Shown one piece after another: positions 12,885 to 43,425 of a stretch of DNA of 64,000 nt. How positions within the stretch are numbered: the stretch's first letter is position 1; the number at the start of each line of letters is the position of its first letter. Origin of the DNA: Flectonema sp. DT1601 (Eukaryota); the NCBI GenBank assembly GCA_964019425.1, contig OZ025795.1:1302001-1366000 (forward strand). Reading direction: 5' to 3'. The notes beneath the pieces were generated by a model, which was not told where the DNA came from, ran no database searches, and saw only the letters and a program-made list of their open reading frames with translations. Made by a program: the position numbers and the translations under genes.

Positions 12885-13594
12885 ATGCAAGTTTTTGTGA
12901 CGTGTCCGGATTTGGGATTCCCCGCAGTGTCAGTCACGACTGGTGTTGATTCCCTTGTGAGCGAAGTGTTGACGGCGGCAGCTGGGGAGTGGGATGTGGA
13001 TCCGGAGGAAGTTGAACTGTCGTTCGCTGGTGACACGCTTTGCGAAAGTGAGCGACTAGCAGATCGTGGAGTGGTTGGAGAGAGCGAGTTGGAGATGTGG
13101 AAGAAGCGGTTTCGTATATTTAGTAAATGCTGGTTTGTTGATGATTCAAAACGGGAGAAGCTGCTTCGTTGGCTAAGTGAACACAATGAGGAATACTTAT
13201 GCCTTGACACCACAACATTCACAGAGGATGGTTGCCTCAGTATTAAGGATGATTTGCTTCCTTCTGATGCCGAATGGATTTCTTTCCGCAATTCAAATCC
13301 CGACATCTCAGCCATCTCACAAGCTGTCACTATTGGAAATCGTTTCTTGTATCTTTGTTCACAAATCACTTCTCTTGATCTTTCACGTCTTAGTAGTGTC
13401 ACCACTATCGGAGATGTTTTCTTGTGTGGCTGTTCACAAATCACTTCTCTTGATCTTTCAGGTCTTAGTAGTGTCGCCACTAGGAGATTATTTCTTGTCT
13501 GAGTGTACACAAATCACTTCTCTTATTCTTTCAGGTCTTAGTAGTGTCACCACTATTGGAGATGTTTTCTTGTGTGACTGTTCACAGATCGCTT
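12885..13594 (+). pseudogene. UBL-LRR gene copy 2: 2-nt deletion near 13481, interrupted by a retrotransposon in repeat 4
   Basis: Near-identical to copy 1 at a 2418-bp offset, including ~200 bp of upstream DNA. LRR sequence stops at ...TGTTCACAGATCGCTT (13594). Confidence 0.85.
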
Positions 13595-13662
13595 GGGATC
13601 ACGACACCTGCCTCCTCGCGGCGGTCCCGGACGACTTCGATAGGGGTCGACAAAACAGTGTC
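13595..13662 (+). ncRNA. HDV-like self-cleaving ribozyme at the element 5' end
   Basis: P1 GGGAUC/GGUCCC; P2 GACAC/GUGUC; P3 GCC/GGC; L3 UCCUCGC; P1.1 CC/GG; P4 CGACUUC/GGGGUCG; candidate catalytic C at 13651 followed by AAAA. Confidence 0.8.
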
Positions 13663-16620
13663 AAACACAAGAGATGCCAACAACATCAAAACCATCAAAA
13701 CCAGCTACAACATCCAGAGCATACAAACCCTGGATGCTTCTTGTCAAATAAAGAACGGAATAAACTAGCCCATGCCTTGAATGGCAATGGTGGACCAGGA
13801 AAGGACAGCAGAGACCGACGCCCGCGAGACGATACTCGCGACAGGGACGAAAACCGTCCAAACAAGGAGGAACGCCGCATAGCGAAGCTCGAGAAAGAGA
13901 AACTCGACTCGCTAGACGAGATAGAGGAAGAGAAGCAACGACTGGGGCAGCAGAGAATGGCCATGGAACAGCACCACCACCAGAAGGAAACCAACCTTCA
14001 AGGACAAGAAAAACAGTTGGAACAGCAACGCCAACACCAACAACAAGAACTGCAAAGTCAGTACCACCAACAACAGCAGCAACTGCAGAGCCATCATCAG
14101 CTGAAGGAAGCGGAAAACCTCCAGAAGGAGCAAAACCTACAGGCTCAACTCAAGGAGCGACACCAGCACCAACAGAAGGAATTGCAGAAGCAATACCGCC
14201 AACAACAACAGCAACTGGAAAGCCAACAGCAGAAGAAGGACGCCGAGTCTGAACAGCAAACACATCTGACTCGGTCACAACTACAGAAGGAGAAGGAATC
14301 CTTCCAGACAGAGAAGGAACGGCTCCACCTCCAGCTGGATCAGCAGTTGAAGAACGAGAAGGAGCACCTCCACCAACAACTCCAACAGAAGGAAGACGAG
14401 GTTCGTAAAGAAAAGTTAGCAGAGAGAATAGAACTCCAACAACTGCGAGATGAACTAACTCAACAAGAACAGAACATCCAACGACGTGAGGAAGAGGTGA
14501 ACCGAGGACAGCACCAACTACACCAACAACAACAACAACTAGAGCAGCAGCAACAGCAATCGCAACATCAGCAACTGGAACTACAACAACAACGGCAACA
14601 ACAGCAACAGCAACAACAGCATCAACAACTGGAACTACAACAACAACAACAACAGCACCAACAACAGCATCAACAACTGGAACTGGAACAACAACAACTA
14701 CAACAGCAACAGCAACTGCAACAACATCGACAACCGCAACAACAACCGCAACAGCAACCCGTACACTACATGCAACATCAACCGTATGCAACGTACGACA
14801 CCTACGCCCAGCAGCAGCAGTCTTCCCACTACGAAGGGCTACAACAGGAACTGAAGCGCGAAAGAGAGGAGAAGAGCGAACTACGCGAGATGCTCCGAAC
14901 TCTCCAACAACAACTGGACGGATTGAGAGAAGAACTCAAGGCCCAACATGCTGAGGCGAAGAGGCAGCAGGAAACGGCGGGACGAGAAGCGAGAGAGATG
15001 CAAGAACGTTTCTTGCTAGAACTGGAAGCGGAACGGGTCCAGATCAGAGGGCTCAACTCGCTGAGAGAAGAGGAAGAGGAACATCAGATGGACACCACCC
15101 CTGATCAGGAAGCAAATACGGAAGTGAAGCAAACGCCACCGGTGAAGCTGCCCCAAGACGGCATGAGGGAGCTGGACGCCTCACGCAAGAAGCTGATGAA
15201 AGAAATCAATGAAGGGCAGGTAGCCGGACGATCGGCCATCCAAGAGCAGATGGTCCGAGAGGCCGGGAGACTGGCGCAGACTCAGAAGAGCTGGGAGAAC
15301 GCAGCACGCAAGGAGCGATCCAGAGTGGATAACCTCTCGCTGGCACCGGAATACTGGCCAGAGGGAATGGCGATCACGAAGGAGCAGTACGACGCCGGTA
15401 CAAAGGGAGTACACCTCACCACCAGAGAGGAGGCAAGGAAGAGGATGTCGGGAACACCTCCGGGAGCCTGGGAAACGTTATCCCTGGTAACCCTGGAACC
15501 ACCATCAAGCACGGCCCAAAAAGTACAAGTGGTACTGAAGGAGACGACGAGCGACGGCGAGAAGAGAATTCTCAAGCAGCTCTGGATGACAACACTGGGA
15601 AGAGTGGTTGTACCATCCGGAACAGACGTCGTGCGGACGGAAAGCACGAGGGAGATGGTTGTCCGGGTGGACAAAAAATGATCCGGAGAGAAGAGATTGT
15701 CGGAAGTGAAGCGCTCCCCGTTCAGAGCAACGGAGGAATTGAAGAAGATGCCGGGGTACGTCGATACGTACAACCCGCGGATCGGAGACCAGAGCGTCAC
15801 GGTGATGCTCAGGGTGAAGGTAGCCGAAGTGAAGAACTTCCTCCGAGAATCGGGGAAGGACGGCGTCTTCACCAAGGAAAAGGATCCGAGAGAGGAACGA
15901 GCAGTGAAGGCGGCGGTCATTTGGCTACCGAAGGACGAGACGCTCGGAATCGCTCGGGACAAGGCTGTAGAAGTCGATGGGGGGCTGGGACTCGTGGTAA
16001 ACGAACACGGACTCGGGCTTCGAGTGACCAGCTGGCAGGAAACGGCGGCGAGGGAGAAACTGCACCTGCCGGCTAAGCTACCGGAAACAAAGATCACGGG
16101 TATCCCGATCGGCACAACCACCGACGAAGCGATCAAGTGGCTGATCACGAAGGAAGGCTGGGAAGTGAGGAAGACGAAGGAAGGCGTACGGAACGGCATG
16201 CGATGGATGGTCGTCCGCGGTCCGGTGAGAACGCAGGAAACCATCACGGTGGATGGCGTCCTGTGCATGGTGGAGGCTGGGAAACAGAAGGAGGAAGTCG
16301 ACCCGAAACGGAAGGAGACCAAACGCCCGAATGCGACACCGACGAAACCAGAGAAAAGGCGTGACCCGACGGAGGGAACGGGAGGAAAGTGGTACACTCG
16401 ATTGGAGTTCATCGAGTTTCATGGGAAGAAGAAGGGACAACGCCTATGGTTAGAAGCCAGCAACCCAACACCAACTACGACGGCACCTACGAAGGCAGCG
16501 ACCGCAACGACGACAACGGAAAAGGAACCCAAGTCGACAAAAAAGAAGGAGAACAGCTCAGTGGACGAGAGATTGGACCGACTGGAACGTCTACTGATGG
16601 CGTTCATGGAACGGAATTGA
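13597..16620 (+). CDS. retrotransposon ORF1 (Gln-rich coiled coil + unknown domains); internal in-frame TGA at 15679-15681; start codon uncertain
   Basis: ORFs 13177..15681 and 15697..16620 share one frame. Poly-Q/E heptads at 13950-15080; C-terminal coiled coil VDERLDRLERLL. Confidence 0.75.
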
Positions 16621-19600
16621 CCGGCGGAGGACGGAAGGAACTGGGCGGAGACACGGAGACGTCTCCTGCTACAAGCTGGCGACGTTGAGAGGAACCCCGG
16701 ACCGAGACCACGAATCGATGGGCTCACCGTGGGAACAATCAATGTCACCACACTAGAAGGAAAAATAGATGCCATCACAGATCTGAACCTAGATCTGATA
16801 GCTCTACAGGAAACTTCTCTGACGGGCCCACAGCAACGCCAGATGAAAAAACAGCTCGGTGAGAGAGGATGGGAAGCGACGTTCGGGTTAGAGTGCAAAT
16901 TACTAACCGATGGGCAAAAGACGTGGACGGCGGCGGGAGGCGTGGCCATCTTGACGCGCACTGGTACACCGGTGAGAAGGATAAAACACGATCGGCTCGA
17001 CAACACAGGACGATTCGTACACGCGGGAGTGTCGTACGGAAATGGCAAGGTACTGCACGTTTTCTCGTTCTACGGAGACGTACGTTCGGCGGTCTACACG
17101 GAAGAGTTGATTGCGGAGATGCTCGTGGAAGCAGCAGCTCTGGGTGATGTTCCCGTATTGATAGCGGGGGACTTCAACGTCGAAACAACGGAATCGCCGG
17201 CGCTTCTGTCGGCTTTCGCACACGGACTCTGGATAGATGCCGCCGTCTCGATGGGAAACATGACACCGACAAGCGAAGCGGGAAAAGGACTTCGTAGAAT
17301 CGATGCTATTCTGATGAACCGCGGGGCGGCGACAGCAATCTCGAATGACACAACGATCCATGTGCATAAGAGTGAGCTGATCCCGACACACAAGCCGGTC
17401 ATCATTAGAAAGCTCAACATCTCACGTTACAACGAGAAGGCTCCTAGGCTGATAGTACCGAAACAGTTGGATACCTCCGAGACAACGGCCCCGAGTGAGG
17501 GGAAGGCCGAAAGGCAACTCCACTGGACGCGAGCTGTAGCGACGGAAGATCCTGACAAGATGCTGGAGGCGCTTGGAGAGATCATCGAAAGATACCTTCT
17601 GACGGGAAATCTGGAGATAAGTAACCCAGCCAAGTACAAGGGACGCGGGAAGAAGCGTGAGCCTGTGATGTGGACGAACGCGGCGAAACAAGACGGGAGA
17701 GGAGCGACGTGCAGGGAAACGCGAAGAAGACTGCAGAAGATACGTGTTCTGGAGGAAGTGATGAAAATCACAAAGCAACGCGATGGTCCGACGGTGCCGT
17801 CCCACGAAGTAATGAAACTCTGGAAAAAATTACGAAAACTCGATCCGACGACGGGATCCGAAATACCACAGACGGAGGAGCTTCGGATACTACTACAACA
17901 AGCGAGACAGGAGCAAGCGATAGAAAGCAAGAAGCTCCGAACTGAACGCATCCGCATGTGGAAACGGAATGTTGTCGACAATTGGAATGACGACCGCACG
18001 AAAGTTTTCCAGTGGATCAGGAACGTCGAGCAATCGAAGACTGTTCTGATGGAAAAGGCAGATGGAAGCTGGACGGCCAACTGCTCCGAGATGGATGAGG
18101 CCATGCACGCGGCATGGGACCCCATACTCAAAAAGTACTTATCAGACCCGGAACCAGACTGGATGAAGTTCGAAGAACGGTACAGCATCCTAACTACATC
18201 GAGGAACACCCGATGCGATGCGAAGATATCACCGGGGAGGACGTTGCAAAAGCCCTCAGAAGGACTAGCTCGCGCAAAGCAGCTGGGGTAGACGGCTTCA
18301 GGATATCGGAGCTCAAGTCGCTACCGGAGGACATGATTCAGATGATAGCGGAATTCTACAACATAGTGGAGAGAACACACTGGCCGGAAGCACTTCTCAC
18401 GGCACTGGTGTCGGCCATACCCAAAGGGGCAGGGACGAAACTACTGGAGCAGAGACCCATTACGGTGACATCCGCACTTTACAGACTATGGGGCTGTATA
18501 CGTATGGAAAAGGATGTAATGGAGTGGCAAGAGAAGTGGGCTCACGACGGGCAGTACGGCTACCGGAAGGGGAGATCTACGCTCGACCTCAGCTGGAAGA
18601 TAGCACTAGACGTGGAACACGCAACTCTCTACGGAGAAGAGATTGCTGGAGTGACCACGGACTTCAGGAAGTGTTTCGACCTGATCCCGCACGACATCCT
18701 CCTGAAATTGGTGAAGGAATTGGGCCTCGGTGATAAGATCCTGAGAACTGTGACGGATGTCTACCGGCGACTCAGAAGGAGATTCAAGTTCCCGAGCGGC
18801 GTCGGAGAAGAATTTGCCACCACCAACGGAATACTGCAAGGATGTCCGCTCAGCGTGGTGCTCTTCAATGCGCTGAGCTCGATACTCAGCAAAGCAATCG
18901 AGAGGGAAGCCGATGTGACGCCCGGATCGTATGCGGACGACCTGACGTTGTTTGGATCACGAACGAAGCTACAAGAAGGCGTAGAAGTCGTTGCGGAGTT
19001 CTGCACCCTGACCGGACAAGAACTCGCACCTCAGAAGTGCAAGTGGTTCTCGAACAGAGACCAGGGCCAGACCAACATCACAATGGGGGACACAACACTG
19101 GACTTCGATGACAGTGTCGATATCGTGGGATGCCACCTCAGTATGAAAGGAACCACCAAGCAGATGGGGAGGATCACGGAAGAAGTGCTCGATAGAGCGA
19201 GGCGAATCCGGTTACTTCCGCTCAGATATCAAGCGAAGGAACAGATAGCTGCAGCTAGTGTCATGCCCAAGGCGCTCTTCGGAACGGCACTGTACGATCC
19301 CGATGCGACGCGACTCGGACTGCTGAGAAGAGCAATGGCAACGGGGATTTTCCGGAAACTTGGAGGGAAAAGAACTAAGATGTCGCACACCATGGGCCTA
19401 ACGCTACTCTGCAAGGGACATTGTGTGGATCCCGCGACGTACATTAGGTACAATAGACTCCTTGCACTCACCAGAATGCTACCGAAGCTAACTGAGAGGA
19501 TACGCAGGGTATGGGAACACCTGCAAGAGCACACTGAAGCGACGAGAGGACCAGTCGGCCTCGCCCTGAGTACTCTGAAGGAACTTGGATGGGAATGGTC

Positions 19601-19919
19601 AACTTTCTCGGTCTTCGAAGGTCCGGGAGGGACGACCGAACACGGAAGGCTGGATGCGGGGCGCTGGCGGCACGATGTCAGAGAGGCGTGCAGGCGTTTC
19701 ACCTGGAACAAAACAATTGCGGAAACGAGACGGGTAAACCTGAGAGGTATTGAAGCGGGCATCGACCGGAAAGAGACCCTGAAGGTCCTGAAGGAAGGAA
19801 AGGGCGACCCCTACCTGCGCGGAGTAGTGAAGCACTGCCTCCTGGACAACGTGTACACTGGCTCGATGAAGGCGGGAAACAAGAACTGCGCGCACTGCGA
19901 GGAGGTTGACGACGTAGAG
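16621..19919 (+). CDS. retrotransposon ORF2: 2A-like peptide, AP endonuclease, reverse transcriptase, partial zinc knuckle; one frameshift near 18190
   Basis: Frame is open from 16621: PAEDGRNWAETRRRLLLQAGDVERNPGP, then APE. RT continues in the 18114..19940 frame. Confidence 0.88.
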
Positions 19920-19939
19920 AGTACATCTGTTGACTTGTG

Positions 19940-20200
19940 AAACTTTGAATGAGGAAACTAAAGAACCTGACAATGTAGTGACACATACTCAACAGGAGCT
20001 GATTGAATTATTAAATTAATAAAAAGGATCGTTTAGAATATGTAAAGACTGGAGTTAGGAAATATTTATTATAGACTCAGTAGATGAGGTAATACGAAAG
20101 GACAAAATCCAACTACTCTGAATTCTTGAAAAATGAGGAACCCAAAACCTTTGACTTCACTGCTATGTATAGCAACCCAAAGCAGAGAAGCGTTGGTGGA
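19940..20200 (+). pseudogene. degenerate Penelope-like reverse transcriptase fragment
   Basis: With frameshifts it reads KTGVRKY-IIDSVDEVI...PKTFDFTAMYSN, resembling the Penelope-type RT motif TFDFxxLYTxI. Confidence 0.5.
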
Positions 20201-20630
20201 ATCATTTTTAAATTTTCGGGTAAGAAACATATTGCAGAGCACGTGGAAAAATCCAAGACTTTTTTTTTACAGATGGAGGGGCTTTTAACCCAATTATACT
20301 TCACCCCCCTCTCAGGAATTACCGAACAAGATTAAAGGCTCAATTGTATTTTTTTAATATTCTGATTTAGTACAACTATCTTATAATAATCTCATATTGT
20401 TACCCCAACCAGAGACTAATCTTGTACATTTAGCAGATAGTATGTTCCGACACTTATGTTGTTGTGTAAGGTTTGTTTTCTTTTACTCTTTTTCTTATTG
20501 TGTTATTATCTCATAACGTTTTTTATATAATGTATTCTGTCCGATCACTATGTGTAATTTCTTTCCTACAAACCAAACTACCACCAACAGAGGGATCTCT
20601 GGGGGTGCAAAGGTGGATCCGCCTACTGCA

Positions 20631-21752
20631 ATGGCACGTAAAACTTATGATGAACAGGAATTAGTGCTCAGCAGAGAGCCACCATTGTCATTGATTGTTT
20701 TTAGACATCAGGTTCAGGGAGTAGAATGTCGTTCATTTGTGACATCTGGACTTATGAAGTTCTCTCATCGTGAAATTGTTTTCACATTTAAATTGACGGA
20801 TAAACAGATTAAACAATCTAAGATAACTGAAGAGTTTGAAGTTAATAAGGATGTACCAAATGGATTAGTAGATCTTGTTCATATTATAGTCGTGTATGCT
20901 TCTCAGGGGAAATTGGCAACTGGGGGTCGCATGACGAGATTACATCCAACTAATGGTCAGGGACTCTTTGGAAATAATTTTAGAGGAATTCTTTATTATC
21001 CATGTCAAGGTGAGCGATTTCCAGCAGGTGGTCTCCAAGCCTTTGCACTAACACATGCCGAGATAGAAATAGTAGATCGTGTTGGGCCAGTTAGGTTTAT
21101 GTCTTCGTTGGGGCAAGCACATCGTCAATTCCCAACTGTTCCATGGATTGATACTGAACGATCAGCAATGTTAGGAACCAAAAAATGGCTTGAATCGTCG
21201 TTAATCAGAGAATTAGGTTTGTCCTCATCGATTGCATCAACATTTATATGTCTCCAAACCCAATTACCTGGTGCACCAGTGGTATCTTCAAATACAACAA
21301 ATGGTTGTCATGATTACACTTGGGATCGTAGCAATTCTAGTCAAAGAGCAGTGTTAATTTATAGCAAAGATCTGTGCTCTTACTTGGAAGAAAATAGAAT
21401 GGAATCTCCACGAAAGACATCTTTTGGTTTGTTTTCATTTCCCACCAGAGATGTCAGTCACATTCTGACTTATCCTATCACATCTGCTGATCGCTCTAAC
21501 AATAATATAGATGCAATTATGGGTGGGAACTATAGAGACACTGGGGTAACGAGTATGTTGGGAAATTTTTTCTTGTTTACAGAAAGTAATAATACTCCTC
21601 AGGGTGCTGTGAAAGTCGAAGATGGTTTTTGCATTTTTGTTCCCTCTGTCGAACGTATCATTGACGCAATTATCAACAAAGAGAACGTGAAAATTGAGGC
21701 ATCCGATGAGGCAATGCCACTACACCTGGTGTATCTAAAAGACAACCAATAA
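20631..21752 (+). CDS. stand-alone DUF3480 / SARA-endofin C-terminal-like protein (upstream in-frame ATG at 20550 also possible)
   Basis: FVTSGL..FSHREIVF, RFMSSLGQAHRQFPTVPW, KVEDGFCIFV resemble ZFYVE9/16 C-terminal motifs; no FYVE domain. Confidence 0.6.
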   Translation: MARKTYDEQELVLSREPPLSLIVFRHQVQGVECRSFVTSGLMKFSHREIVFTFKLTDKQIKQSKITEEFEVNKDVPNGLVDLVHIIVVYASQGKLATGGRMTRLHPTNGQGLFGNNFRGILYYPCQGERFPAGGLQAFALTHAEIEIVDRVGPVRFMSSLGQAHRQFPTVPWIDTERSAMLGTKKWLESSLIRELGLSSSIASTFICLQTQLPGAPVVSSNTTNGCHDYTWDRSNSSQRAVLIYSKDLCSYLEENRMESPRKTSFGLFSFPTRDVSHILTYPITSADRSNNNIDAIMGGNYRDTGVTSMLGNFFLFTESNNTPQGAVKVEDGFCIFVPSVERIIDAIINKENVKIEASDEAMPLHLVYLKDNQ

Positions 21753-21762
21753 GCTTTAGAAC

Positions 21763-22107
21763 AGACTCTCATCTTATTATGCGGCTTTTCTTTCCAGCCG
21801 ACGCTAAGAAGCAGAGAAGAGATGTTCGAGAAAAAAAGGAAAAAAAGAAAGAACAAGATCTCCGTTTAATCAGTAGATTGGTTATAAATCTGAAGATCAC
21901 TACATCTTCAGTAATAAATTGATATGCAAATAGTTGTTCATTCTTTGAACGTATTTAAGAATGAAAACCACTTCAACTTTTATCATTTTATAAAAGACTC
22001 TTATCTCGTTGTGCGGCTTTTGTTTTTTTCCAGCCGACGTTGAGAAACTGAGAAGAGATTTCCGAGAAGGAAAAAAGAAAAGAAAAAGATCTCCGTTTAA
22101 TCGGTAG
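21763..22107 (+). repeat. diverged ~115-bp direct duplication (21763-21876 and ~21995-22107)
   Basis: Shared TGCGGCTTTT..TTCCAGCCGACG..GAGAAGAGAT..AAGATCTCCGTTTAATC.GTAG. Confidence 0.8.
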
Positions 22108-22389
22108 CTTGAGCGAACCTTCCAAAGAACTTTCATAAAAAGTCGATTGATGCCATATTTTGTTATCTCGTCTCGTACAAGGTTGCAATTCTTGGCTTCC
22201 TCACAGGTTATAGAGTTTTACTCGGTTTAGTAGGGATTAATTCTCTATCCAAACATATAGTTGGTCCGGCGCGGTTATGACCATAAACTGACTGTCATTT
22301 TACCTGATCCTTTTGTTTTCATTTCTTGCTAAGTGATATGGCTATGTATTGCCCAATTTTTGTCGCAGTACAATCATAATGCTTTAGAC

Positions 22390-22432
22390 AACTGAGGGGT
22401 GAACGATCCTCGGTATCGTTCACCCCTCAGTT
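22390..22432. repeat. perfect 18-bp inverted repeat with a 7-nt loop
   Basis: AACTGAGGGGTGAACGAT-CCTCGGT-ATCGTTCACCCCTCAGTT. Confidence 0.95.
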
Positions 22433-22539
22433 CAGTAGGTGGGCATATGGCACATCAGGTCGTATTATAAAGTAAGATGCTGAATAAGGAATAAGAAGGG
22501 TTTTTTTAATTTTCTTGACCTTCTCCTCCACTCCCAGAT

Positions 22540-23620
22540 CATTTCTCTTTTATTTTCTTTAGTTGTTTTCAAGCTGTTAGCCTCTGGGCAAGGTGGAAGC
22601 TGGGGGTTGATCACTACCAGCCGAACCTATAAAACTACAATCTTCGCGATTGGGTCCCTGCTGATGCGGGCTACCCAACGTGTTTATTGTCCTACGAATT
22701 TTTGCATTTAATTGAATTTATTCGGATCGATCCAGTGTGGTTCGATCCGAGTCGATTCAAAAAAAAAAAAAAAAAAAAAGGGCTGCTGCCAAATCTATCT
22801 TCAATATTTAATGCTCTACGAGTGGTTTTAGTATATTATCAGTGAATTTATTTATATCCTATTTTAATTTTTTATTTATTTATTTATTTATTAGTTCGAA
22901 GTAGTTTAATAAGCAAGGCGAAGTGGAATGTTAGATTTCAGTAATCTTTCTGTCGAAGCTATTTCAACTATCCATGCTGAGTCTTCGGATATGGCTACGG
23001 ATTGGGTCCTCTGTTGCTGTGAGTTGCTCTCTTAGTAGAGTACTCATAGTATAGAGCAACGTTGGATTATATAAGTAGCTAATTAATTAATTTATTCAAA
23101 CGAGTAGTATAAGATTAAGGGTCCTGAAAACTACGTATTCCACAAGTGTTTTATGGAACAGCAGAACAATGTGTTATTTTTTTTATATAATATTATTTTT
23201 TGATTTAGTGCACCTTTTTAATAATGAACTCATATTCTAAGCTCGAAACCAACCATTATTAGTTTGTTGTCCTGCCAATTTTTGAATTTGGTTTTTTTGT
23301 TTGACAAGTAACTATTAATACTAACCAACTTAGCACTTCTAAAGTTGTGTTTTTATAAATCTTCTTTTTCTTATAGTAATTTAGCGCACTGTTTTTATAA
23401 TAAACTCATATTCTAACTAATTTAGCTCTCGATGAGTAGGACAGGCCTGACATCGCAGTGTCCCCGTTGCTTTCTTCGCTGAAGAGGGCTGGGAAAGGCG
23501 AATGGTCTGAAGAACGATTTCTTTAATTTTATTCCAAAATCCAAACGTTATTTATTTGTTGTCCTACGAATTTTTGCATTTGATTTTCTTAGTTGACTGA
23601 TAACCATTAATACTAACTTA
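22540..23620 (+). repeat. mosaic dispersed repeat family with structured modules; related blocks at ~12600-12690, 32640-33240, 33760-35750, 39130-39420, 41250-41620
   Basis: Shared strings GGGCAAGGTGGAA, GGATTGGGTCCTCTGTTGCTGTGAGTTGC, GTATAAGATTAAG..CCTGAAAACTAC, TTGTCCTACGA. Confidence 0.8.
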
Positions 23621-23736
23621 GCACCTCTATTCATCGTCTTCGCGGTACCAGCCACGACCTCCGTGCGTCTCAACTTTTATTACATAATTTTTATTCTCAG
23701 GTACTATACGGCCATGGAAAACTAATTGTGTATTGT

Positions 23737-25884: not shown

Positions 25885-25995
25885 TTTACACACCATTTCT
25901 ACAAAAAAACAATAAAAGTTAAATGAATTTATTTTGCTTTAATGATTTCATATTTCACCCCCCGTTCCCAATCAGTTATATCAAAAAAAGCAATC

Positions 25996-31314: not shown

Positions 31315-34300
31315 TTAACAAGTATTGTAAGAACGAGAAAGGAATGTAGGGTAGCACACGTAAACCTCCTTTAGCTTTATCAGTTCAAGTCGGTTCACGG
31401 TTACGTGCACAAAGAATGTCGAAACTGGACATCACAATTCTTTTGTCGTTCGCTATGTTTTTTTTTTTTTTTTTTTTTTTTTTCTTGCCTTCAGAACTGT
31501 TGTGTCAGAAACAATCTCCTTTCGTCTTCTCGCTTGTGCGAGTCTCGGGGTGATTGTCCAACCTTTGGAACACAAGTTATTTCTTTTTTTTCTTTTTTCT
31601 TTTTGAATTTTTTTTCTTCAAAAAGAAAAAGTATTTGCCTAACAAAAGATTGCAAAGTCGATGGCGTTTTATAATATTTTCGCATTCAGCTACTCAGACG
31701 GTCACAAGAAAATATTTTTGACTGACGTGTGTTTTTGTGGGATTTCTCCATTGATATTAGATTGTCTTTCTGAATGAGCTGCGGTCTCACAGTAATTTCT
31801 TAGATTGCTGACAGAGACCAGCATCCTTGTTGATCAGCTTCTCCCAATTCTTTTGAAAAAAAAAAAAAAAAAGAAATAAAATAAAAGGTCAACAGTATGC
31901 ATAATCCAGCTAATTTTGAAGGGTCAATTGGGGGGGAACCTCAACGAATTTTCGTTTTTTTTTTTTTTTTTTTTTTATTGTTGTTTTTTTTCATGCTTCC
32001 ACATACCTAATTATAATTTTACAGATTTTTTTGATAACAATTTGTCTCATCCTCTTCTACATCAAAAAAAAAAAAAAAGAAACTACCCTTCACTTTAATT
32101 TTATTGTTCTCTTTTTTTTTTCTTCCCTAAAAAAGTGAATTCTTCATGTCATCACCATGCATCTCTCGACTATATGTGAGAGTCAAAAAAAAAAAAAATT
32201 AAAAAAAAGAAAAATTGATTTTTCCTGTTGAAATAAAAGTAGTGATCGATGAGCAAAACAAAACTGTTTTTTTTTCTTCTTTTTTTTTTTAAAAAAAGAA
32301 ATTCTTATTCTTAAAGCAAGCAAAGAAACTTTTGATGTTTAAGTAAGCAATATTTTTGATTCTGTTCCTCACAGAATTCCTTACAGATTGGTATATTTAT
32401 TCGTAGTATCGCATTGTTGCAGTTCTTCTTTTTAAAGCCCTTTGCAATATTAATTGTTTCGGGTCTTTTAATTCTTTTAAGTGGTATAGAGGGGGAGGGA
32501 GGTTACTAGGAATATGAAGAAAGGTTTTATTATATAAATGGATTTGAAAAAGATGCTTTTTGTATTTACTCCTTATCTCCATTCCCGCCCCTGATTAATC
32601 CTTTCGTATCGTATTATATCCCTCTCTGGTTTTTTTTTTTTTTTCAACCTGTTAGTCTGGGCAAGGTGGACAACTGGAATTGAACCTTTCAGCCGAAGCT
32701 ATAAAAATGCAATTTTCGTGGCTGAGCCATCTCCTGGTGTGGGTTACCCAGACTACCCGGACTTGCAATTATAATAAACTCGTTTATTTATTTGTGATTA
32801 CCCCTCTATTACTATCCAAGTATGAGATTAAAGCCTTTTGAAAACTACATATTTCACAGCGTTAAATGGAACAGCAGAAACAATGTTGTTTGTTTTTAAT
32901 ATATTTCTTTCTTTCATTTTTGATTCAATGTTGTTACTTTATAACAAAACTCGTATTCTAGCATACTTCTCTGACGTCATGGTCGGTGATCAAAAAAAGG
33001 AACGTGTTTGGTTAATATAAACCTTTTTTTTTTTTTTTTGTAGTCTCTTCTCTAGGGAATTCTAAATTTCTCTTTTATTTTCTTTAGTTGTTTACAACCT
33101 GTTAGCCTCTGGGCAAGGTGGAAACTGGAAGTCGATCACTTCCAGTCGATATCATAAAGTACAATCTTCGCGATTGGGCCCTTACTGATGTGGGCTACCC
33201 AGACTGATGACCCTTCGTAGTCATCAGTTTGTATTTGCTGACTAATTAAATAAAATCTTTTCCAACAACGGGATTCCGACTGAGTATTGATTTACTATCT
33301 GATTCACAACATTAATCTTTGTGTAACTTCATGATTATTTTGATGCTCTGAAGTCGCGTGAGCGATACGTAACAAAAAGCTTTAAAGAAATTGAACTGCA
33401 AGGTCTCTCCTTCTTTTTTTGTTTTTGTTTTTTGTTTTTGTATTCTTCATTTTGTCTTTCATGAATTTCCGACGGCATATAACTGGCCACTTTGAACGGA
33501 AAGCTTTGTATCTTTCTTGTTTTAATGTTCAAATTAAATCTATCACCTTTTTTCTTCTCTTGTTTTATCGCAGAACTCATCGGCCGTGCTACCAACTATT
33601 CAGATTAAGAGCCTTCTATTTATTGATCGCAGCTGTGATCAACTTAATATGAGGCTTACCTGAATGGTTTTTTTTTTTAACGAAAAAATCCAGAGACAAA
33701 ACCAGTCACTACCAGCTCCCTGCAGTCATTAATCTTTTCCCCTTGCTCTTTTCTTTCTAAAGGTACCTTTTCTTTGATTAACAACTACAAATATTTTTGT
33801 CAGTCAAGTACTTGATATTAATTTTGTTTTTAATACCTAAAGTTGTTACTGTTTTTTAATTGTCAAAGTTTCACCCCCTTGTTCTTTTCTTTCTTTCCAA
33901 CAATGTGTTGTAGTAAATGTTGCAGTCCCCACATGCACTCGCAAGTTCGTTTTTTGCGTCCTTGAGAGTGGCGAGCAGTCGGCTCTTAACAATAGTGCGT
34001 GAACGGGAGCGAGGTTAGAGCTACGCATGTATTTTTTATATAGTGACTCGCTCGTTGGTATTATTATTTTTTTGTTAGCAACTTGTTATTATTATTAGTA
34101 AATAAACCCGTTAGGGAATTCAACTATCCACACCGTCTTCGGAAACGGTTACGGATTGGGTCCTCTGTTGCTGTGAGTTGCTCTCCTAGAGCACTCATAA
34201 TATAGAGCAACGTTGGGTTATATAACTAAAATTATCTGCCAAAAACTTCATATGCTTAACCTTTGTTGCTTTTATCTTGTATGTGCTGGTACCCTGCTAA

Positions 34301-34584
34301 TCAGTAACAAAAGTGAGGAATCTATTTCTGGTTTTTTTTTTTTTTTTTTTTTTTTTAAAATTCCAATCCTAACAGAACTACAGTTTTATTATCAATTCAC
34401 TTTTAGCTTTATTAAGCCAGGCAAGGTGGAAAGCTGAAGATTTTGATGTCATCTAACTTTTCCGTTAACTTAATTTATATTTCTTTGGCTAATTAACTTA
34501 TCAAGCAATCCAAATCTGAGTCTTGAAACGGCTACGGATTAGTTCCTCCGCCTTGGATGGAACAGTAGAAACGATTGTGTTAAA

Positions 34585-34621
<37 letters not shown>

Positions 34622-36316
34622 GTTGTTTGGTTTAGTAACAAAAAAAAACTCAAATTACTAACTACGGGTTGTTATCTTTTTTTTTTTTTTAAAAAAACCC
34701 AAAAAGAAAAAAAAAAAACAAGGAAAAAAAAACATCACACCAAATGCTTCAGTTCCATGAGTGTCGTGGATGTTTGGTAAATTTTTATTCCCACTTTCTG
34801 TTTTTTTAAAAATCTTTTAGACTATCTATTGCGACAAACAAAAAAAAGCAAAAAACACACACATCAGTCTCTCCAATGAGACAAACGAATTATATTTCCC
34901 TTATGTTTATTATTATATTTTTTCTCGACAAAACCTTTCTTTTGATTTAACAACTGCAAATATCATTTTCAGTTAACTACTGACACTGTTTGCTCGCGCG
35001 GGCGGTGGGTTTAGGTAGTCATTTGTTTCAGGTTATTCTACGTCTCTCATATGTCTGTGAGAGTCTCACGGTTGGCTGGTAGCGATCTAACTGTTATCCT
35101 GTTGAGCTCGTTCCTGTATTATGGCTTCCTGAACTTCAAAAAAAAAAAAAAACACCTAAAGTTTGTTACTGTTTTTACATTCAAAGTTTCACCCCATCTT
35201 CACAGGAAGTCTGAGAACCTATTCAGCTGAATCTCGTGACGTTGAAGTCGAAGTTGCAAAGCAAACTGATTATAAGCTCGATGGATCTTCCTTGTTGCTG
35301 TGTGTCGAGAGGTCGACCACATACTGAGTGAAAAAAAATATTGTATACTCAAAGGACGAAGAGCATTTTTCGGTTTTTATTTATTTTTTTTTTTTTGTGT
35401 TATTTTTACTACGAATATCCGTAGCAATTCAAAAAAAAAAAAAAAAAAAACATTCTCCCATCATTCATCAGAGGTTTGTTTTTCTTTCTCAAAAACCCAA
35501 AAATTACTAAATTCAACAATGATTTCTGAATACTAATACTAACATTCTTATTGTTATATAACTATAAGTCTTCTGTGAGTCTTCGGAAACGGTTATGGAT
35601 TGGGTCCTCTGTTGCTGTGAGTTGCCCTCCTAGAGCACTCATAACATACAGCAACGTTGGATTAAAATAACTAGCTATTTTAAAATTGAAGGTTCCAACT
35701 ATCCAAAAACTGCATAACCTTGTTGCTTTTATCTTGTGTGTTTAAACGAAACATCGCCCTCTGTGCTTCGGTTAGTCGAATTTTGTTATTTTTCTTCTGT
35801 TCCTTCACTTGGTGTTTTTTGCTTTAGTGAAAAAGAAAAAAAAAACTAGTTGTTTCTTCTTGTCAAAAAAAAAAAAAAAAAAAAAAAAGGCAAAACCTGC
35901 CGTAGTTGGTAGGTTTGCGTTGTTATTTTCCTTCTCTGTGCTTTCAAAAAAAAAAAAATAAATAAATAAAAAGAGTATCTTATGGGTATTATTGTTCATT
36001 AATTATTTAATGAAATCTTTGCAGGTTACTCATTCTTTTCTTATTCCCTTTTTCCTGTTCAATGTGGTTGTCTAACAGCAACTTGTTGATTGTTTTTTTT
36101 TTTTTTTTTTTTTTTTTTTGTTCTGTTTGAAAGAAAGAAAAGAAGGAATTCAAAAAAAAAAAAAAGAAAAAAAAAAAAAACACTGTAGTACATGTTTCTC
36201 CAATGGAATAACAGAGAGGAGATTTTTAACAAACTGTACTGTGCAGGTAATACCTTTTCCCAAAAAAAATGAATAAATAAATTTACATGTTCATTATACT
36301 CATCAGCAATCACGAT

Positions 36317-37684
36317 ATGAAGCTACCAGTCTACGCCAGGCTGCCAGAAGGAACACTTCTTTTCTTAGAAGTTGATCAGACTGGTACTATTGGGTTCCTT
36401 ATAAAGGAAATTGAATCTCAAACTGGAGTGAAGGGGATTAAATTAATGTTAAACGGCGTATCACTCGGAGGGGAAGCAACAGAACTATCTGACTGTGGAG
36501 TGTACTCTGAATGTGTTATCGACGTTGATTTCCATAGAATAATAATCGGAGATAAAGGCAGCGAGACTGTTGATGGATTCATTGCTTCACCACAAGGACT
36601 TTTATTATACTCAAAGTTGGGTAATGCTACTGCTGTGAATACGTTACTGCAATGTGGAATAGATCCTAATTGTAAGAACAGCTCAGGAGAATCACCTCTT
36701 CATCTCTCTGCTATGAGAGCTCATTATAATGTTGTTGAGTTGCTGTTGCAGTATAATTGTGATGCGAAGGCACATGATGCTTTTGGAAATAGTCCTTTGT
36801 ATTTAGCATGTGAACATTCCCATCCAGATATTATCTCTCTGCTATTAAATACTGGTATTCCTTGTCAACTTAGTTATCTTGTTGTTGGTATGTCTCAAAA
36901 GAATACAGATGTTATTAGTGTATTGCTACGATACACTAATCACTTAGAAGAAACTGATGCGGAAGGTCATACAGCTTTACATCATGCGGTTGATACTCGA
37001 GATGTTTCAGTTGTGAAGTCAATTACTGAAGCAGGTTGTCCTGTTGATACATCTTCAAGAACAGGAGTGACACCATTATTAGCATCGTGTGAAAGAGGTT
37101 GTGCTGACATAGCGAGTTATCTCTTACAGAAGGGAGCTAACCCACATCATAAGAATGGGAATAAATCAAATGCGATAACATCATCGATTGGGACAGTTGA
37201 TTCTGAAAAGTTAGTAACAATGTTATTAAAGTTTGGAGTCGATCCAAATGTAGCAGACGCGAGAGCTGACGCATCACCACTAATGTTGTCATGTCAGTTA
37301 GATGATAAAGCAGTTACTCGTTGTCTTGTTATGATGAGTCATGATTTGGATATAAATTATCAAAACTCATCTGGGAACACATCGCTGATGGAAGTTGCTG
37401 CATCTGGTTGCGAAGCAACTGCTAACATTCTTCTTTCATCATCATCTCTTAACCTCAACATTAGAAATAATACAGGTAAGACTGCTCTTCATATTGCTGC
37501 AGAACGTGGTCATGTTTCTGTGATTGAATTACTGTTATCGAAGGGTGCTGATGCGGAAATCAGAACCCTTCGAGGTGTGAATCCTCTACTTCTCGCAGTC
37601 AGAAATAATCAAGTCACTGCAGCAGAAGTAATGCAACGCCACCTTGAGAAACGATCGGGTGACAGTTGCTGCATTATATCGTAG
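36317..37684 (+). CDS. ubiquitin-like domain + ankyrin-repeat protein with C-terminal CaaX (CCIIS)
   Basis: N-terminal VYARLPEG..LMLNGVSL..LSDCGVYSECVIDV; repeated GxSPLH/GxTALH ankyrin motifs. Confidence 0.85.
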   Translation: MKLPVYARLPEGTLLFLEVDQTGTIGFLIKEIESQTGVKGIKLMLNGVSLGGEATELSDCGVYSECVIDVDFHRIIIGDKGSETVDGFIASPQGLLLYSKLGNATAVNTLLQCGIDPNCKNSSGESPLHLSAMRAHYNVVELLLQYNCDAKAHDAFGNSPLYLACEHSHPDIISLLLNTGIPCQLSYLVVGMSQKNTDVISVLLRYTNHLEETDAEGHTALHHAVDTRDVSVVKSITEAGCPVDTSSRTGVTPLLASCERGCADIASYLLQKGANPHHKNGNKSNAITSSIGTVDSEKLVTMLLKFGVDPNVADARADASPLMLSCQLDDKAVTRCLVMMSHDLDINYQNSSGNTSLMEVAASGCEATANILLSSSSLNLNIRNNTGKTALHIAAERGHVSVIELLLSKGADAEIRTLRGVNPLLLAVRNNQVTAAEVMQRHLEKRSGDSCCIIS

Positions 37685-38174
37685 TCGTAATAGAAAAGGT
37701 AGACCGTCTTTTTAATATAATTTTCTGTTTTTTTTTCCTCTTTTTTTTTTTTTTTTTGTATCGTTACTGACTTATTTCCTCACTATTCAGACTGGTGTAC
37801 AGCCTGCTATTCCACTGATTAATATTTAACACTCACACGGAGTCTTGTTCTTGCTTGGCTGTGGAAAAGTTCAACAGTAACCACAATAGGTCATTATGTT
37901 GTCTGTCAAGGCAGCCCATTGTGCGAAACTCGTTTATATTTACCAGAAATCTTGCGAACCCTTTTGGTTGAGGGAACAGACGTCGATCTCTTATTCTTTA
38001 AAAGAGTTAATGTTGAAATATGATACAAAAGAGTTTTTCAACGCGGCATCATTTAGGCGATTCATTTCTGCTTGAAATAAAAATCTTCCTCTCTTCCCCT
38101 TCGTTGTACTCGATATCCTTAATTAGATAATCGTAAGTCGGTACAATAGAGATAAGCTGTAAACTAGGTTTTTC

Positions 38175-38225
38175 AGTTGCCTTTTCTCTTTTTTTTCTCT
38201 TTCTCTTTCTCTTTCTCTTTCTCTT
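38175..38225. repeat. (CTTTCT)n microsatellite / polypyrimidine tract
   Basis: Direct reading of the sequence. Confidence 0.85.
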
Positions 38226-38591
38226 TTTTTTTTTTTTTTTTTTAAATTTTTTGCAGCGGTGTTTTTTCACTGTGCTCCTCCGTTATAGTATAAGTTTTTT
38301 TTTAAATTTTTTTTTTATAGTAGTATTTTTCAATGTGTAGGCTAAAAGAAATTGTTGGGAGCAAAGAGGCATGCGATTTTATGTGGACGGAATCCAGTTA
38401 TGATGATTCATGTCTAATGTGTTGCTTGTTAACCTTGATTTATTTATCTAAGTTCCCTTGTGAGATTTTTTTTTTTTTTTTTGGAAAAAAAAAAAAAGGA
38501 AAAAAAAAAGAGAAGAGAAGCATCCAATTTACAATCGAGTGACTACTTCCCTGACCTGAGTTGCTGTTAGGGGGGATTTAATTCGATACGA

Positions 38592-38628
<37 letters not shown>

Positions 38629-39795
38629 CTTTGTAGCTGATATGTTGTTGAACAAGATATCTTTAATCGTTCCCCTGCTCCCAATTTTCTTTAAATCGGT
38701 CGATTGTTCTTTTTTTTATTTACCGATCTGAACAACAAACAACTGTTGGATTATACAAATATATAAACTAACTAACAACATAAACATCAATAACACCAAC
38801 AACAGAAAGCAGCTGGTAATGTCTGCTTTTTTCGGTGATTTCTTTTGTTCCCGTGTTCTCTCCCTTTGAGAGCATGACTTCTAATACGACACCGTTACCT
38901 TCCTCGTACGGTATTTCGATTGCTCTTCTCTCGTCAGTAAGATCTCAATAAATTTTATTAATTAGCTGAACTTGCTAACCAGCTGAGCGACAATTCCTTA
39001 GATGGAAACGACACAAAATAGAAACTCAAACCTGGTAGTTAAACGCGCAGACGTCGAAGACATAAGTTTAAATTAAACGACAAAGAACATAAACTAACCT
39101 GACTAGCTCCGATGAATTTTTTACCTTAAAATGATAACAACTTCAATATAGAACGAAGTCCCTAGAACTTAGTGAGAGAGGACTAAAGGGGATGCCGGAC
39201 ATGTTCTATTTCCGCAGATGAATGGTCTTTTGTTTTATTTTTGTCTTTTCTTTATTTTGAGTTATAATCTTTTCTATAATAAAATAATACCAACTGGAGG
39301 GCAACCCCAGCGGTGAGTAGACACCGCAGTGTCCCCCTTTACTTCCCTCGCCGAAGAGGGCTGTTAATTTTTAGCCCGAAAAACAACCATTATTTGTTTG
39401 TTGTCATTTGATTTCTTTTTTTAATTATTATTTGTGTTTTTTTTCTTTTTTCTTTTATATGAATCAGAGGGAATCAGAGGGAAGTGGTTTATTGTATCGA
39501 CGACGGTTGGTTAAGTCTTCAAGAGTATGAATAAAAATATTTTACTTTTTTACTTTTGAATTGTTGAATAGATCAGAATTCTTTTTTTTTCCTTTTTTTT
39601 TTTCTTTTCGAGTAGTTGCGTTAGTGAGAAACTAGTTGTAATGTTTACTAAATTAAACTGTCAGTAAAGAATGAATGGCTCAAAACAAACTGAGCTCAAA
39701 TAACACCAATCTGTGTCCTAGATGGACAAGCACATACCAGCAGTGTTAACTGATTACCGTGAGCTTTGCCTGCCTGAAAAAAGATAATAGTTAGT

Positions 39796-40578
39796 CCCTG
39801 TAACGGGCTACAGGACATGGGGCGCTCAACCTGTAGTACGTGGCCTCGAATCCCCATATTCGACAGAACATATGGGGTTTTTTATCGATACCAATTGTTG
39901 ATTTTCTTATATTGCAACCAGGTTTTGCCGAACCCTATTCTCGTTTTAGCCGGTTTCAAGTTGCTTTCTATTTGATATTAGTATCAAGTTACCCCCCAAT
40001 AAGTAACTACACTCTAGTCCTGCTAACTGGAGTGATTCAGTCACAATAGTAGACTGACTACTTCTACACCATAACTGATGATGAGAGAATAGAGTAAAGA
40101 GGTATATGGATTACTCTTGAAACCTGATAGTTACTTTAAAAGGCTAAGTTAAGCACTGTATCCTTAACAGATGTTGTATTTTACAAATTCAAACATTCAA
40201 CCCCCCTACAACACTTTTAAACTACTATTCCCAAGTTATCTCCCAAAGTCTTGCGACGTGTGCACCACAGTAATGCGCTACGAATCAATATATTTTTTGG
40301 TTTTCTTTTACATTGTTTTTTTCCCCTTTTTATTTGTGAGGTTTGCTTTTGAAATCCATTTTATTGGTTTTCAAATTGATATTTATATTTAAAAACTGTA
40401 ACGGGTTACACGCTCAACCTGTAGTACGTGTCCCCCGAATCCCCATATTCGACAGCATGTATGGGATTTTATCGATAGCAACTGTTGGTCTCTTTTTCAT
40501 GGCAATCCGGGTTTAGCCGAATCCTAATTTAGTTTTAACCAGTTTTCAACTTGCTTATATTTCATTATAGCGTCAAGT
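39796..40578 (+). repeat. two copies of a ~190-bp dispersed repeat; further copies at ~43850-43990 and 62263-62390; probable piggyBac-like left end
   Basis: Shared TGTAACGG..GTACGTG..CGAATCCCCATATTCGACAG..TATGGG. The copy at 62259 begins TTAA|CCCTT. Confidence 0.65.
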
Positions 40579-42343
40579 TTATCATCCTAGGCGGTCATCC
40601 AACCTGTGTCAGTTAATTTCGCCCTCTAAATTTGGAGGGCGGTTCTAACTCCGACAATTTTAAAATGTTGCTTTTATTATTATTATATCGATTCACCTTA
40701 ATATTTTTAACAATTAATTGCTCAGTAGGCATGAGATGAGGCAGAAATTCTTTCTTTGAATGAAAAACTCACAAAATAATACTACGAACCTGAAGATCGT
40801 ATTTTCTCTTTGACATTGATTACATTTCGTAGTCGGTTATCGTCCGTCTCTTACACTGCCTGCCTCGTCAATAACTTCTAGTTAAAGTACGTCTCTCCTC
40901 GCTGTGAGAGTCTCTCTTAAATACTGTTTCCTGAATTCGAATGTTTTTTCTTTTTTTTGATAAAATTATTTATCTTTTCATAACTGAGACAAGTCTTCAC
41001 TCAAAAAGGGTAATTAATATTTGTGTGAATTATTATTTACTCTTCCTTTGATGTATTGTTTGTATTCTTTCTTGTTTTTTTTTTTTTTTTTCTTCTTTGA
41101 ATTATTTGGTTTTAAATTTGTAGTTTTCAGCAGTCTGGTCCCCACTGTCCGTCGCAGATCTTTCCATTTTTTTTTTTTTTTTTAAAATCCCTCTTAAGTG
41201 TGCGTATACTTGTTTCTGTTTTAAAACTAACTGATTCATGTTAATATTAGTCTGTGAGAGTCTCACGGTTGCTGGTAGCGATGTAACTGTTACCCTGTTG
41301 AGCTTTTCCTGGTTTAGTTTACAACGATGGCAACTTCAATATAGAATGAAGTCTCTTAGAACTTACTGATGAAGGCCTAAAAAGGGACAAATAGTATAAG
41401 ATTAAGTCTCCTGAAAACTACATATTCTATTACCCTTTTGATGTTAGGAAACTGCAGAAATGAATACTTTTCTTTTGCTAATTTTTACTTTTTATTCTCA
41501 CTTTTCTATACTAAATTTAATGATAACTAACTGATAACCGTTGATACTAACTAATCATCTTTATGAGTAGGACAGTCACTTACTTTCTTTGTTGTCCTAC
41601 GAGTTTTTGTATTTCATTAACCTATTTAATGTTACACAAAATAAATAATCTTTTCCGTCTGTTCTAAACACCTACCTGCCTCCTCAGTTCTGGTAACTTT
41701 TGGTGGTTAATTCTCCAAGGTACTTTAGTTATAATTTAAAAGGTATATAACTCTTTAAAAGACTGCTACAGTAACATTAGCAATCTGGCGCTCAACTGTG
41801 TTCATATGACTTGCTGTGATATTGTTTTATTTGCAGCTATTTACAATGCTGCCGCTGACAGTCAAGATTGTCTGAAGTGGTGTTGTTTTTTTTGAGCCTG
41901 ATTACGTATCTTATAATCTCTCCCCTACAAGATCGCTTCGAGTCTCTTTCTTCTTCTTCTTGTTTTCTTTTTTGGTAATTTATATAAATAAATAATAAAT
42001 AACTTTCACTTTGGTTTTGTTATTTTGTCAGTTCTTTGCCTTTGTCATATTGTACAAAGATTTCTATTTATAGTTTTAAAAAGTAACACAAGTAGAGAAT
42101 CACATAAATCAACTTCCTTTCATGTACTCTCACAGTATCCATACCTATGATGATAGAATAGAGTTAAAGAGATAATCTAAGTTCACTTTCAAAGCTTCAA
42201 TACAATTAATTCTATAACCCCCTCCACAGAGTAGAATCAGTATCGATGTCTCTGTTAGCCTTGGCAAGCAGCAGTTAGCATTTCCACTTTTTTGGAACCA
42301 CTTCAACACCCGTCTTGATTTTCAAGAATTACTCAAAGCAACA

Positions 42344-43425
42344 ATGCAGGTTTTTGTGACGTGTCCGGATTTGGGATTCCCCGCAGTGTCAGTCACGACT
42401 GGTGTTGATTCCCTTGTGAGCGAAGTGTTGACGGCGGCGGCTGGGGAGTGGGATGTGGATCCGGAAGAAGTTGAACTGTCGTTCGCTGGTGACACGCTTT
42501 GCGAAAGTGAGCGACTAGCAGATCGTGGAGTGGTTGGAGAGAGCGAGTTGGAGATGTGGAAGAAGCGGTTTCGTATATTCAGTAAATGCTGGTTTGTTGA
42601 TGATTCAAAACGGGAGAAGCTGCTTCGCTGGCTAAGAGAACACAATGAGGAATACTTATGCCTTGACACCACAACATTCACAGAGGATGGTTGCCTCAGT
42701 ATTAAGGGTGATTTGCTTCCTTCTGATGCCGAACGGATTTCTTTCCGCAATTCAAATCCCGACATCTCAGCCATCTCACAAATTGTCACTATTGGAAATT
42801 GTTTCTTGTATCTTTGTTCACAAATCACTTCTCTTGATCTTTCAGGTCTAAGTAGTGTCACCACCATTGGAGATTATTTCTTGTCTATCTGTTCACAAAT
42901 CACTTAGTGCCTCGTCATCTCACCGTGCTAGCAAGCCTGAATGACAGCACTCAAAATGGTACATATATCTGTTCACAAATCACTTCTCTTGACCTCTCAC
43001 GTCTTAGTAGTGTCACCACCATTGGACATCGTTTCTTATATCACTGTTCACAAATCACTTCTCTTGATCTTTCAGGTCTTAGTAGTGTCACCACTATTGG
43101 AGATGATTTCTTGTCTCATTGTTCACAAATCACTTCTCTTGACCTTTCAGATCTTAGTAGTGTCACCACCATTGGAGATTATTTCTTGTCTATCTGTTCA
43201 CAAATCACTTCTCTTGACCTCTCAGATCTTAGTAGTGTCACCACTATTGGAGATTATTTCTTGTCTTCCTGTTCACAAATCACTTCTCTTGATCTTTCAA
43301 GTCTTAATAGTGTGATTAATTTTGGAGATAACTTCCTTGTTGATTGCAATGCACTTGAATCTGTTCAGCTGCCTGTAAATAATGGCGCTCTCTTTGAGGA
43401 GTCAGTGGAAGCAGCTATTAATTAA
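42344..43425 (+). pseudogene. UBL-LRR gene copy 3 (6 repeats + C-cap), disrupted by a 60-bp insert plus 20-bp duplication
   Basis: Same UBL and linker as copies 1 and 2. Removing 80 bp restores a single ORF. Confidence 0.85.
42906..42965. mobile_element. 60-bp hairpin-forming insertion with a 20-bp target-site duplication
   Basis: TATCTGTTCACAAATCACTT at 42886-42905 and 42966-42985; internal stems AGTGC/GCACT and GTCAT/ATGAC. Confidence 0.85.

Follow-up and report, generated by a model that had tools for sequence, protein, structure and literature searches.

An APE-type LINE of Flectonema sp. DT1601 found repeatedly at one base of a protein-coding LRR repeat

Results

LRR genes of the window

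The window analysed here, a stretch of 64,000 nucleotides from contig OZ025795.1 of Flectonema sp. DT1601, contains three paralogous genes, each with an N-terminal domain and LRRs of the BspA type (PF13306). Like these genes, all long open reading frames with family matches lie on the + strand.

10467..12072, + strand: LRR gene copy 1, N-terminal domain and about 14 BspA-type 75-bp units (PF13306, E 7e-34)
12885..13594, + strand: LRR gene copy 2, 5' half, cut by the LINE in its fourth unit
42344..43425, + strand: LRR gene copy 3, disrupted by the 60-bp insert within its second unit

The coding unit of the repeat measures 75 bp, or 25 aa, and the figure of 69 bp given in a preliminary description of this DNA is corrected accordingly. 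A profile of the unit was derived from the alignment of 17 of the 25 units, the other eight being excluded because they are interrupted, carry a frameshift or lie at the end of an array; in it two codon pairs vary.

Copy 1 is uninterrupted by any insertion and has a 1-nt frameshift near 11722 as assembled. Copy 2 has a 2-nt deletion near 13483, and its downstream half is absent. In copy 3, the insert introduces an immediate TAG and a net gain of 80 bp. With copies 1 and 2 frameshifted (at 11722 and 13483) independently of the insertions, all three LRR genes of the window are broken as assembled and represent either pseudogenes or assembly errors. A stretch of 62 bp between copies 1 and 2 (12320–12381), with 89% identity, is what remains of the start of an LRR gene.

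Two insertions at one base of the repeat unit

The LINE enters copy 2 in its fourth unit, at 13594/13595, where TGTTCACAGATCGCTT is followed by GGGATC. The 60-bp insert enters copy 3 in its second unit, at 42905/42906, where TGTTCACAAATCACTT is followed by AGTGCC. Index 40 of the aligned unit is the last LRR base before either junction, which bears out the coordinates on which the preliminary description had placed the two sequences at one base. The further claim that this base belongs to the conserved framework of the repeat is upheld by the profile, in which the stretch around the junction is near-invariant across the 17 aligned units. Given that both events lie in LRR sequence, the probability of a shared register for the two is 1/75. 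Each insertion disrupts its own LRR gene.

Anatomy of the LINE

The window was compared with runs X1 and X2 over positions 13200–20400 and 42896–43040. In X1 the element is about 99% identical and the LRR pieces are mostly 80–95% alike, a pattern that may reflect another strain or species, or other paralogs at low cover.

13595..19921, + strand: non-LTR retrotransposon of APE-RT type, complete at its 5' end and truncated at its 3' end
13597..16620, + strand: ORF1 frame, Q-rich region and a C-terminal part without Pfam match
16681..16704, + strand: predicted 2A-like motif DVERNPGP, 20 codons past the ORF1 stop in the same frame
16735..17391, + strand: APE endonuclease domain (PF03372, E 4.5e-7; TINV, LQET, SFYG, GDFN, RIDA and PTH motifs)
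18187..18191, + strand: five extra bases relative to the X1 copy, a frameshift in ORF2 of the window copy
18447..19067, + strand: reverse transcriptase (RT) domain (PF00078, E 6.5e-24; YADD at 18930)

An APE domain upstream of a non-LTR reverse transcriptase, both with their catalytic motifs (PF03372, PF00078), confirms the element as APE-type. Of the 6.3-kb LINE proposed earlier, the start at 13595 stands, but the element is not complete: its 3' end is missing from about 19921, where it breaks off within a CxxC motif with neither LRR sequence nor a target-site duplication after the break. In a relative, ORF2 extends about 490 aa (about 1,460 nt) beyond this point. Unrelated sequence (19921–20500) replaces the 3' part of the LINE and the rest of LRR copy 2, which were lost through deletion or rearrangement after the insertion. 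Positions 19948–20400 had no coverage in three sequencing runs, and no further fragments of the LINE family were found within the window.

The ORF1 frame is open from the junction in the frame of the host LRR, with its first ATG only at 13957. It contains a premature TGA at 15679–15681, ahead of the terminal TGA at 16618–16620. The position of the premature stop is occupied by W in the database proteins P0021, P0023, P0026 and P0027, and X1 has the change A15681G, so that the stop is a lesion of the window copy. The end of ORF1 (MERN) is common to the window and the same four proteins; its C-terminal part gave no Pfam match and a best Atlas value of 0.76. The first 120 codons of the element contain neither a stop nor an ATG in the host LRR frame, an opening that arose by chance in 111 of 5,000 simulations and for which the database copies were selected. 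The start region is also less conserved (81–82% identity) than the ORF1 core, and because of this lower conservation and that selection the open 5' region may be no more than a 5' UTR.

ORF2 follows in the same frame, and no ATG occurs between the UGA of ORF1 (16618) and the APE domain. Since the first ATG of ORF2, at codon 75, lies inside APE, we infer read-through or AUG-independent re-initiation. The UGA and the 2A-like motif together (16618–16704), the latter defined as in the available text of PMC3708506, would make read-through plus ribosome skipping possible.

A predicted ribozyme at the 5' end

13595..13662, + strand: predicted HDV-like ribozyme, double pseudoknot fold with all helices paired

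The predicted fold comprises P1 of 6 bp, P2 of 5 bp, P3 of 3 bp, P1.1 of 2 bp and P4 of 7 bp, with L3 reading TCCTCGC and a candidate catalytic C at 13651. The Rfam model RF00094 scores it at 20.6 bits (E 1.1), below the gathering value of 50, and this is the sole Rfam match in 501 bases; as modelled, the fold is HDV-like but lies outside the RF00094 family model. A descriptor of the ribozyme, drawn up after the sequence had been seen, matched once over both strands of the window and not once in 300 shuffles of the element. The first base of the predicted ribozyme, its predicted cleavage base, is the LRR/LINE junction itself (13595), as the first base of the ribozyme likewise lies at the element start in L1Tc and R2, according to the available text of PMC3383444 and PMC5814959. 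On account of this coincidence, the junction at 13595 is likely to be the true 5' end of the LINE. Twelve bases past the predicted ribozyme is the ATG of a 25-codon out-of-frame ORF (13674–13751).

The 60-bp insert

42886..42905, + strand: target-site duplication, left copy, 20 bp, exact direct repeat
42906..42965, no strand assigned: 60-bp insert without poly(A)
42966..42985, + strand: target-site duplication, right copy, 20 bp, exact direct repeat

The left end of the duplication lies within a variable codon pair of the LRR unit, and its four variable-codon bases (TATC) occur at no more than three of the 25 unit anchors, the duplication pair accounting for two. Such a 20-bp duplication was observed around the insert alone, the LINE's own 3' end being lost in the window.

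The origin of the insert was sought in several ways. It has no match in the 6.3 kb of the LINE or in the rest of the window, from which the last 1.5 kb or more of the LINE are missing, and none at a useful score among 200 collected proteins. As a known RNA it was rejected, there being no Rfam match over the insert; as a structured RNA likewise, its hairpin being no better than those of shuffles (z −0.77); and as a canonical intron, the duplication containing no AG/GT. A resemblance between the break in the LINE (19921) and the 3' junction of the insert was set aside, 3.8% of 12,371 window positions scoring equally well. Exact searches returned no match to a 23-mer of the insert in metagenome and viral contigs, or to the first 25 bases of the element in metagenome contigs. 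None of 55 X1/X2 contigs covers the 60-mer; the X1 element contig stops 1,045 nt past 19921 and may miss the 3' end. Candidate proteins of 103–331 aa have no words in common with the insert-LRR peptide.

We somewhat favour the view that the insert is a 5'-truncated product of the same machinery, that is, a retroposed 3' tip of the LINE. The appreciably less probable alternative is that it derives from a different RNA or element, moved in trans, or that repair left a patch where the site had been nicked. The lack of a match to the 6.3-kb LINE, to Rfam or, at a useful score, to the 200 collected proteins speaks for this alternative, as do the absent poly(A) and the hairpin value (z −0.77 against shuffles). 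Nevertheless, a match to the LINE is not to be expected when its last 1.5 kb or more are missing here, and the same endonuclease is indicated by the shared base together with the clean duplication of 20 bp. Mobilisation in trans, if true, would support targeting all the same.

Relatives of the LINE

The best matches of the reverse transcriptase are to diplonemid proteins, with P0028 of Flectonema neradi at 67% and others at about 36–41%. In a FastTree phylogeny of 69 RT segments, from which partial and redundant rows had been dropped and which included no ingi, L1Tc, R1 or Tx1 reference, the window RT pairs with P0028 with a support of 1.0. The host, too, is likely a diplonemid, a marine protist. 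No RNase H was found at E 0.05 in P0028, a full-length relative; the corresponding part is missing in the window. The diplonemid APE-RT LINEs (P0028 and those of D. papillatum, D. japonicum, D. ambulator and Rhynchopus) belong to the same protein clade, and several of them carry a 2A-like motif, as the window LINE does. An LRR fusion, in contrast, occurs in P0021, P0022 and P0027 of the window LINE family and in none of the 197 other collected proteins, and the N-terminus of P0028 differs from that of the window LINE. For the D. papillatum elements, a rigorous classification is described as still lacking in the available text of PMC10161547.

Residues 1–190 of P0028, in the position of the 2A motif, form a Josephin deubiquitinase-like region (Atlas 0.85, a lead only) followed by LRGGG/IRGGG motifs, and an OTU protease is present at this position in the relatives P0016 and P0038. 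These regions may be alternative means of freeing APE-RT from the upstream part. The ORF2 C-termini of P0028, P0033, P0039 and P0002 have repeated Cys/His motifs (C..H....C..C...CC..HH) without a Pfam match, a candidate DNA-binding region for target choice.

Further junctions

Other copies were sought with the first codons of the element, a search that sees only ORFs of 458–1460 aa including those codons and that favours in-frame LRR fusions. It gave two matches among 152 candidates, P0021 and P0022; the window's own ORF1 is missing from the result, though the window's contig was in the collection searched. The cluster of P0021 has six members, of which P0021 and P0027 hold the first codons and four are internal pieces. 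All three database proteins with the element's first residues (P0021, P0022 and P0027) are LRR fusions at the same base. Their junctions read YTCERIT/WDHDTC, SSCSQIT/WDHDTC and YRCSRIT/WDHDTC, with CDCSQIA/WDHDTC in the window, and the base must be identical because the W requires T from the host and GG from the element.

The fusion proteins are encoded on contigs of 608, 515 and 411 kb, and the window on one of 825 kb. The LRR paralogs differ, as does the unit hit, which is the first in P0022, the ninth in P0027 and the fourth in the window. Pairwise, the last 12 host residues match at 6–8 positions and the first 20 element residues at all 20. The ORF1 core is identical at 419–427 of 431 residues among the copies; the host N-terminal domains of the window copies are identical to those of P0022 and P0027 at 106–134 of 158. 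As the flanks diverge far more than the elements, these are separate insertions.

A further junction is contained in a 1,070-nt contig, record 7 of X1, which has an LRR flank on one side and which was retrieved via the element body, not via the flank. By its depth columns, the flank differs at 4 of its last 19 bases, compared with about 1–2% for the element (binomial 3e-4 or less). This is probably a fifth insertion event; the copy (99% identical) might otherwise be the window insertion as carried by a different strain, its flank altered by conversion.

All five visible 5' junctions are thus at the same base and on the same strand, with none outside LRR sequence. The joint chance of this register, if the events are independent and random within LRR units, is 9e-7 without X1 and 1e-8 with it. 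The proposal that an APE-type LINE inserts at one constant base within an LRR array that codes for protein is therefore strengthened by three further fusion proteins and the X1 contig junction. Family proteins are found on eight contigs, four with a junction and four without (290, 381, 78 and 515.557 kb); two contigs near in size (515,421 and 515,557) may be one locus.

Discussion

Targeting, hot spot or recombination

Overall, we conclude that the repeated insertion site in the LRR unit is probably the result of target-specific retrotransposition by a young APE-RT LINE family. The fixed base would likely be set by an endonuclease recognising the conserved framework of the 75-bp unit. On a TPRT mechanism, the element would be transcribed in sense as part of the cluster of host genes. 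The predicted 5' HDV-like ribozyme would free its RNA from the host LRR transcript and set the 5' end at 13595. Small amounts of ORF2 product would arise via read-through of the in-frame UGA, or re-initiation after it, with the 2A motif releasing APE-RT. Reverse transcription would be primed at a nick made by APE in the bottom strand, some 20 bp upstream and within the variable codon pair; with the top strand nicked by APE following CACTT, the 20-bp duplication would result. Being large and redundant, and with numerous units in each gene, the LRR family would tolerate the losses and keep offering empty sites.

The main rival is that the LRR unit is a hot spot rather than a specialist's target: the family would have a loose target consensus as in ingi/L1Tc, which the LRR unit happens to fit well, and many or most copies would lie elsewhere. 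The bias of the protein search towards LRR fusions leaves room for this, as do the four of eight contigs on which no junction is visible. The target pattern of L1Tc/NARTc, moreover, is degenerate and its specificity relative (available text of PMC5814959 and PMC7563717). Other diplonemid LINE families are abundant, with LRR sequence in 0 of the 197 other collected proteins and P0004 annotated as fused to a non-LRR gene. Against these points, none of the five visible 5' junctions lies outside LRR, and the X1 junction came to light by way of the element body. No cluster member is a complete ORF1 from the first ATG, such as a copy outside LRR sequence might yield, though the clustering is evidently incomplete. 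We regard the loose hot spot as unlikely.

It is far less probable again that a single ancestral insertion reached other LRR paralogs through gene conversion or unequal crossing-over between near-identical units, or through segmental duplication, with no need of targeting. Recombination is to be expected among LRR units that are highly alike and tandemly duplicated, and the element copies are 94–99% alike. However, the host residues within two to four codons of the junction vary (CSQIA, CERIT, CSQIT, CSRIT), which makes such spread unlikely because it would take repeated crossovers within about 10 bp. Divergence is far greater in the flanks than in the elements, and the same base is occupied by another sequence, the 60-bp insert, which has a 20-bp duplication to itself.

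Beyond target-specific retrotransposition itself, the family might be a strict specialist of a protein-coding repeat that borrows the host gene and, through its nicks, diversifies the LRR binding surface, an extension that we consider doubtful. If it holds, uncleaved transcripts would be translated from the start codon of the host gene into ORF1 fused to LRR sequence; such fusions are possible because the first 120 element codons continue the host LRR frame with neither a stop nor an ATG. The priming nick would also fall in the variable codon pair, and failed or repaired insertions would diversify the binding surface. For the module shuffling by the LINE suggested earlier we found no evidence: both insertions break genes, and upstream LRR units would not be carried over because a ribozyme cutting at +1, as predicted, would prevent it.

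Comparison with known systems

The preliminary view that a target of this kind had not been described was overstated, precedents being ingi/RIME at the RHS genes and Tetrahymena REP in the introns of LRR genes. Like the present element, ingi/RIME of T. brucei and L1Tc/NARTc of T. cruzi are APE-RT LINEs of a euglenozoan host (available text of PMC7563717, PMC5814959 and PMC3383444). The ingi/RIME hot-spot site lies inside the protein-coding RHS family of trypanosomes (PMC7563717). The 5' HDV-like ribozyme cutting at +1, here predicted, and the 2A-like motif before APE are shared with ingi/L1Tc, and L1Tc combines the same two features with a degenerate target pattern (PMC5814959); for L1Tc/NARTc the sources describe a relative site specificity only (PMC5814959, PMC7563717). 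As with these trypanosome elements, the insertions here occupy a defined site of a multigene family that codes for protein, leave split pseudogenes behind, and include long and short inserts at one site.

Several features nevertheless set the window LINE apart. It has a separate ORF1 of about 1,000 codons and an in-frame stop before the 2A motif where ingi/L1Tc have one ORF, and RNase H, a feature of the ingi clade, was not found in its 67% relative. Its target is repeated many times within each gene, whereas RHS genes offer one site each, and the 20-bp length of the duplication is unlike that of ingi/L1Tc. The LINE works like ingi at RHS, yet it differs in lacking the single ORF and, judged by the 67% relative, the RNase H, and we have not placed it in the ingi clade. 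By analogy, the protein-coding LRR repeat is likely to serve as a landing site much as the RHS genes do for trypanosome LINEs.

Tetrahymena REP is likewise a protist non-LTR element in a fast-evolving LRR family, of which short 3' tails remain. In 76% of cases REP is found together with LRR units, within introns, and a role in shuffling has been put forward, not demonstrated (PMC6564038). According to the available text of that source, REP is intronic and removed from the somatic nucleus, with no fixed base reported, whereas the insertions here are coding, base-precise and gene-breaking. Base precision in a multicopy target, a survival strategy, is otherwise known from APE elements of the R1/Tx1 clades and from R2, CRE/SLACS and Utopia; R2, moreover, is released from its host transcript by a ribozyme, as predicted for the window LINE. 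The strict targets of non-LTR elements described in the available text of PMC4640811 are RNA genes, transposons and simple repeats. In the literature within reach of our search, which included few subscription journals, we found neither a base-precise element inserted into the coding units of LRRs nor any work on what diplonemid LINEs target.

Implications

Nearly all base-precise non-LTR elements listed in the papers available to us target RNA genes or simple repeats. The present LINE would be a base-precise APE element directed at a repeat module that encodes protein, from a group of protists in which mobile elements have hardly been classified. Together with RHS/ingi and Tetrahymena REP, this suggests large, fast-evolving protein families as safe havens. 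The 75-bp unit offers a defined substrate for learning how an APE domain gains specificity, and the LRR genes a clean system for asking whether such elements shape LRR repertoires or merely erode them.
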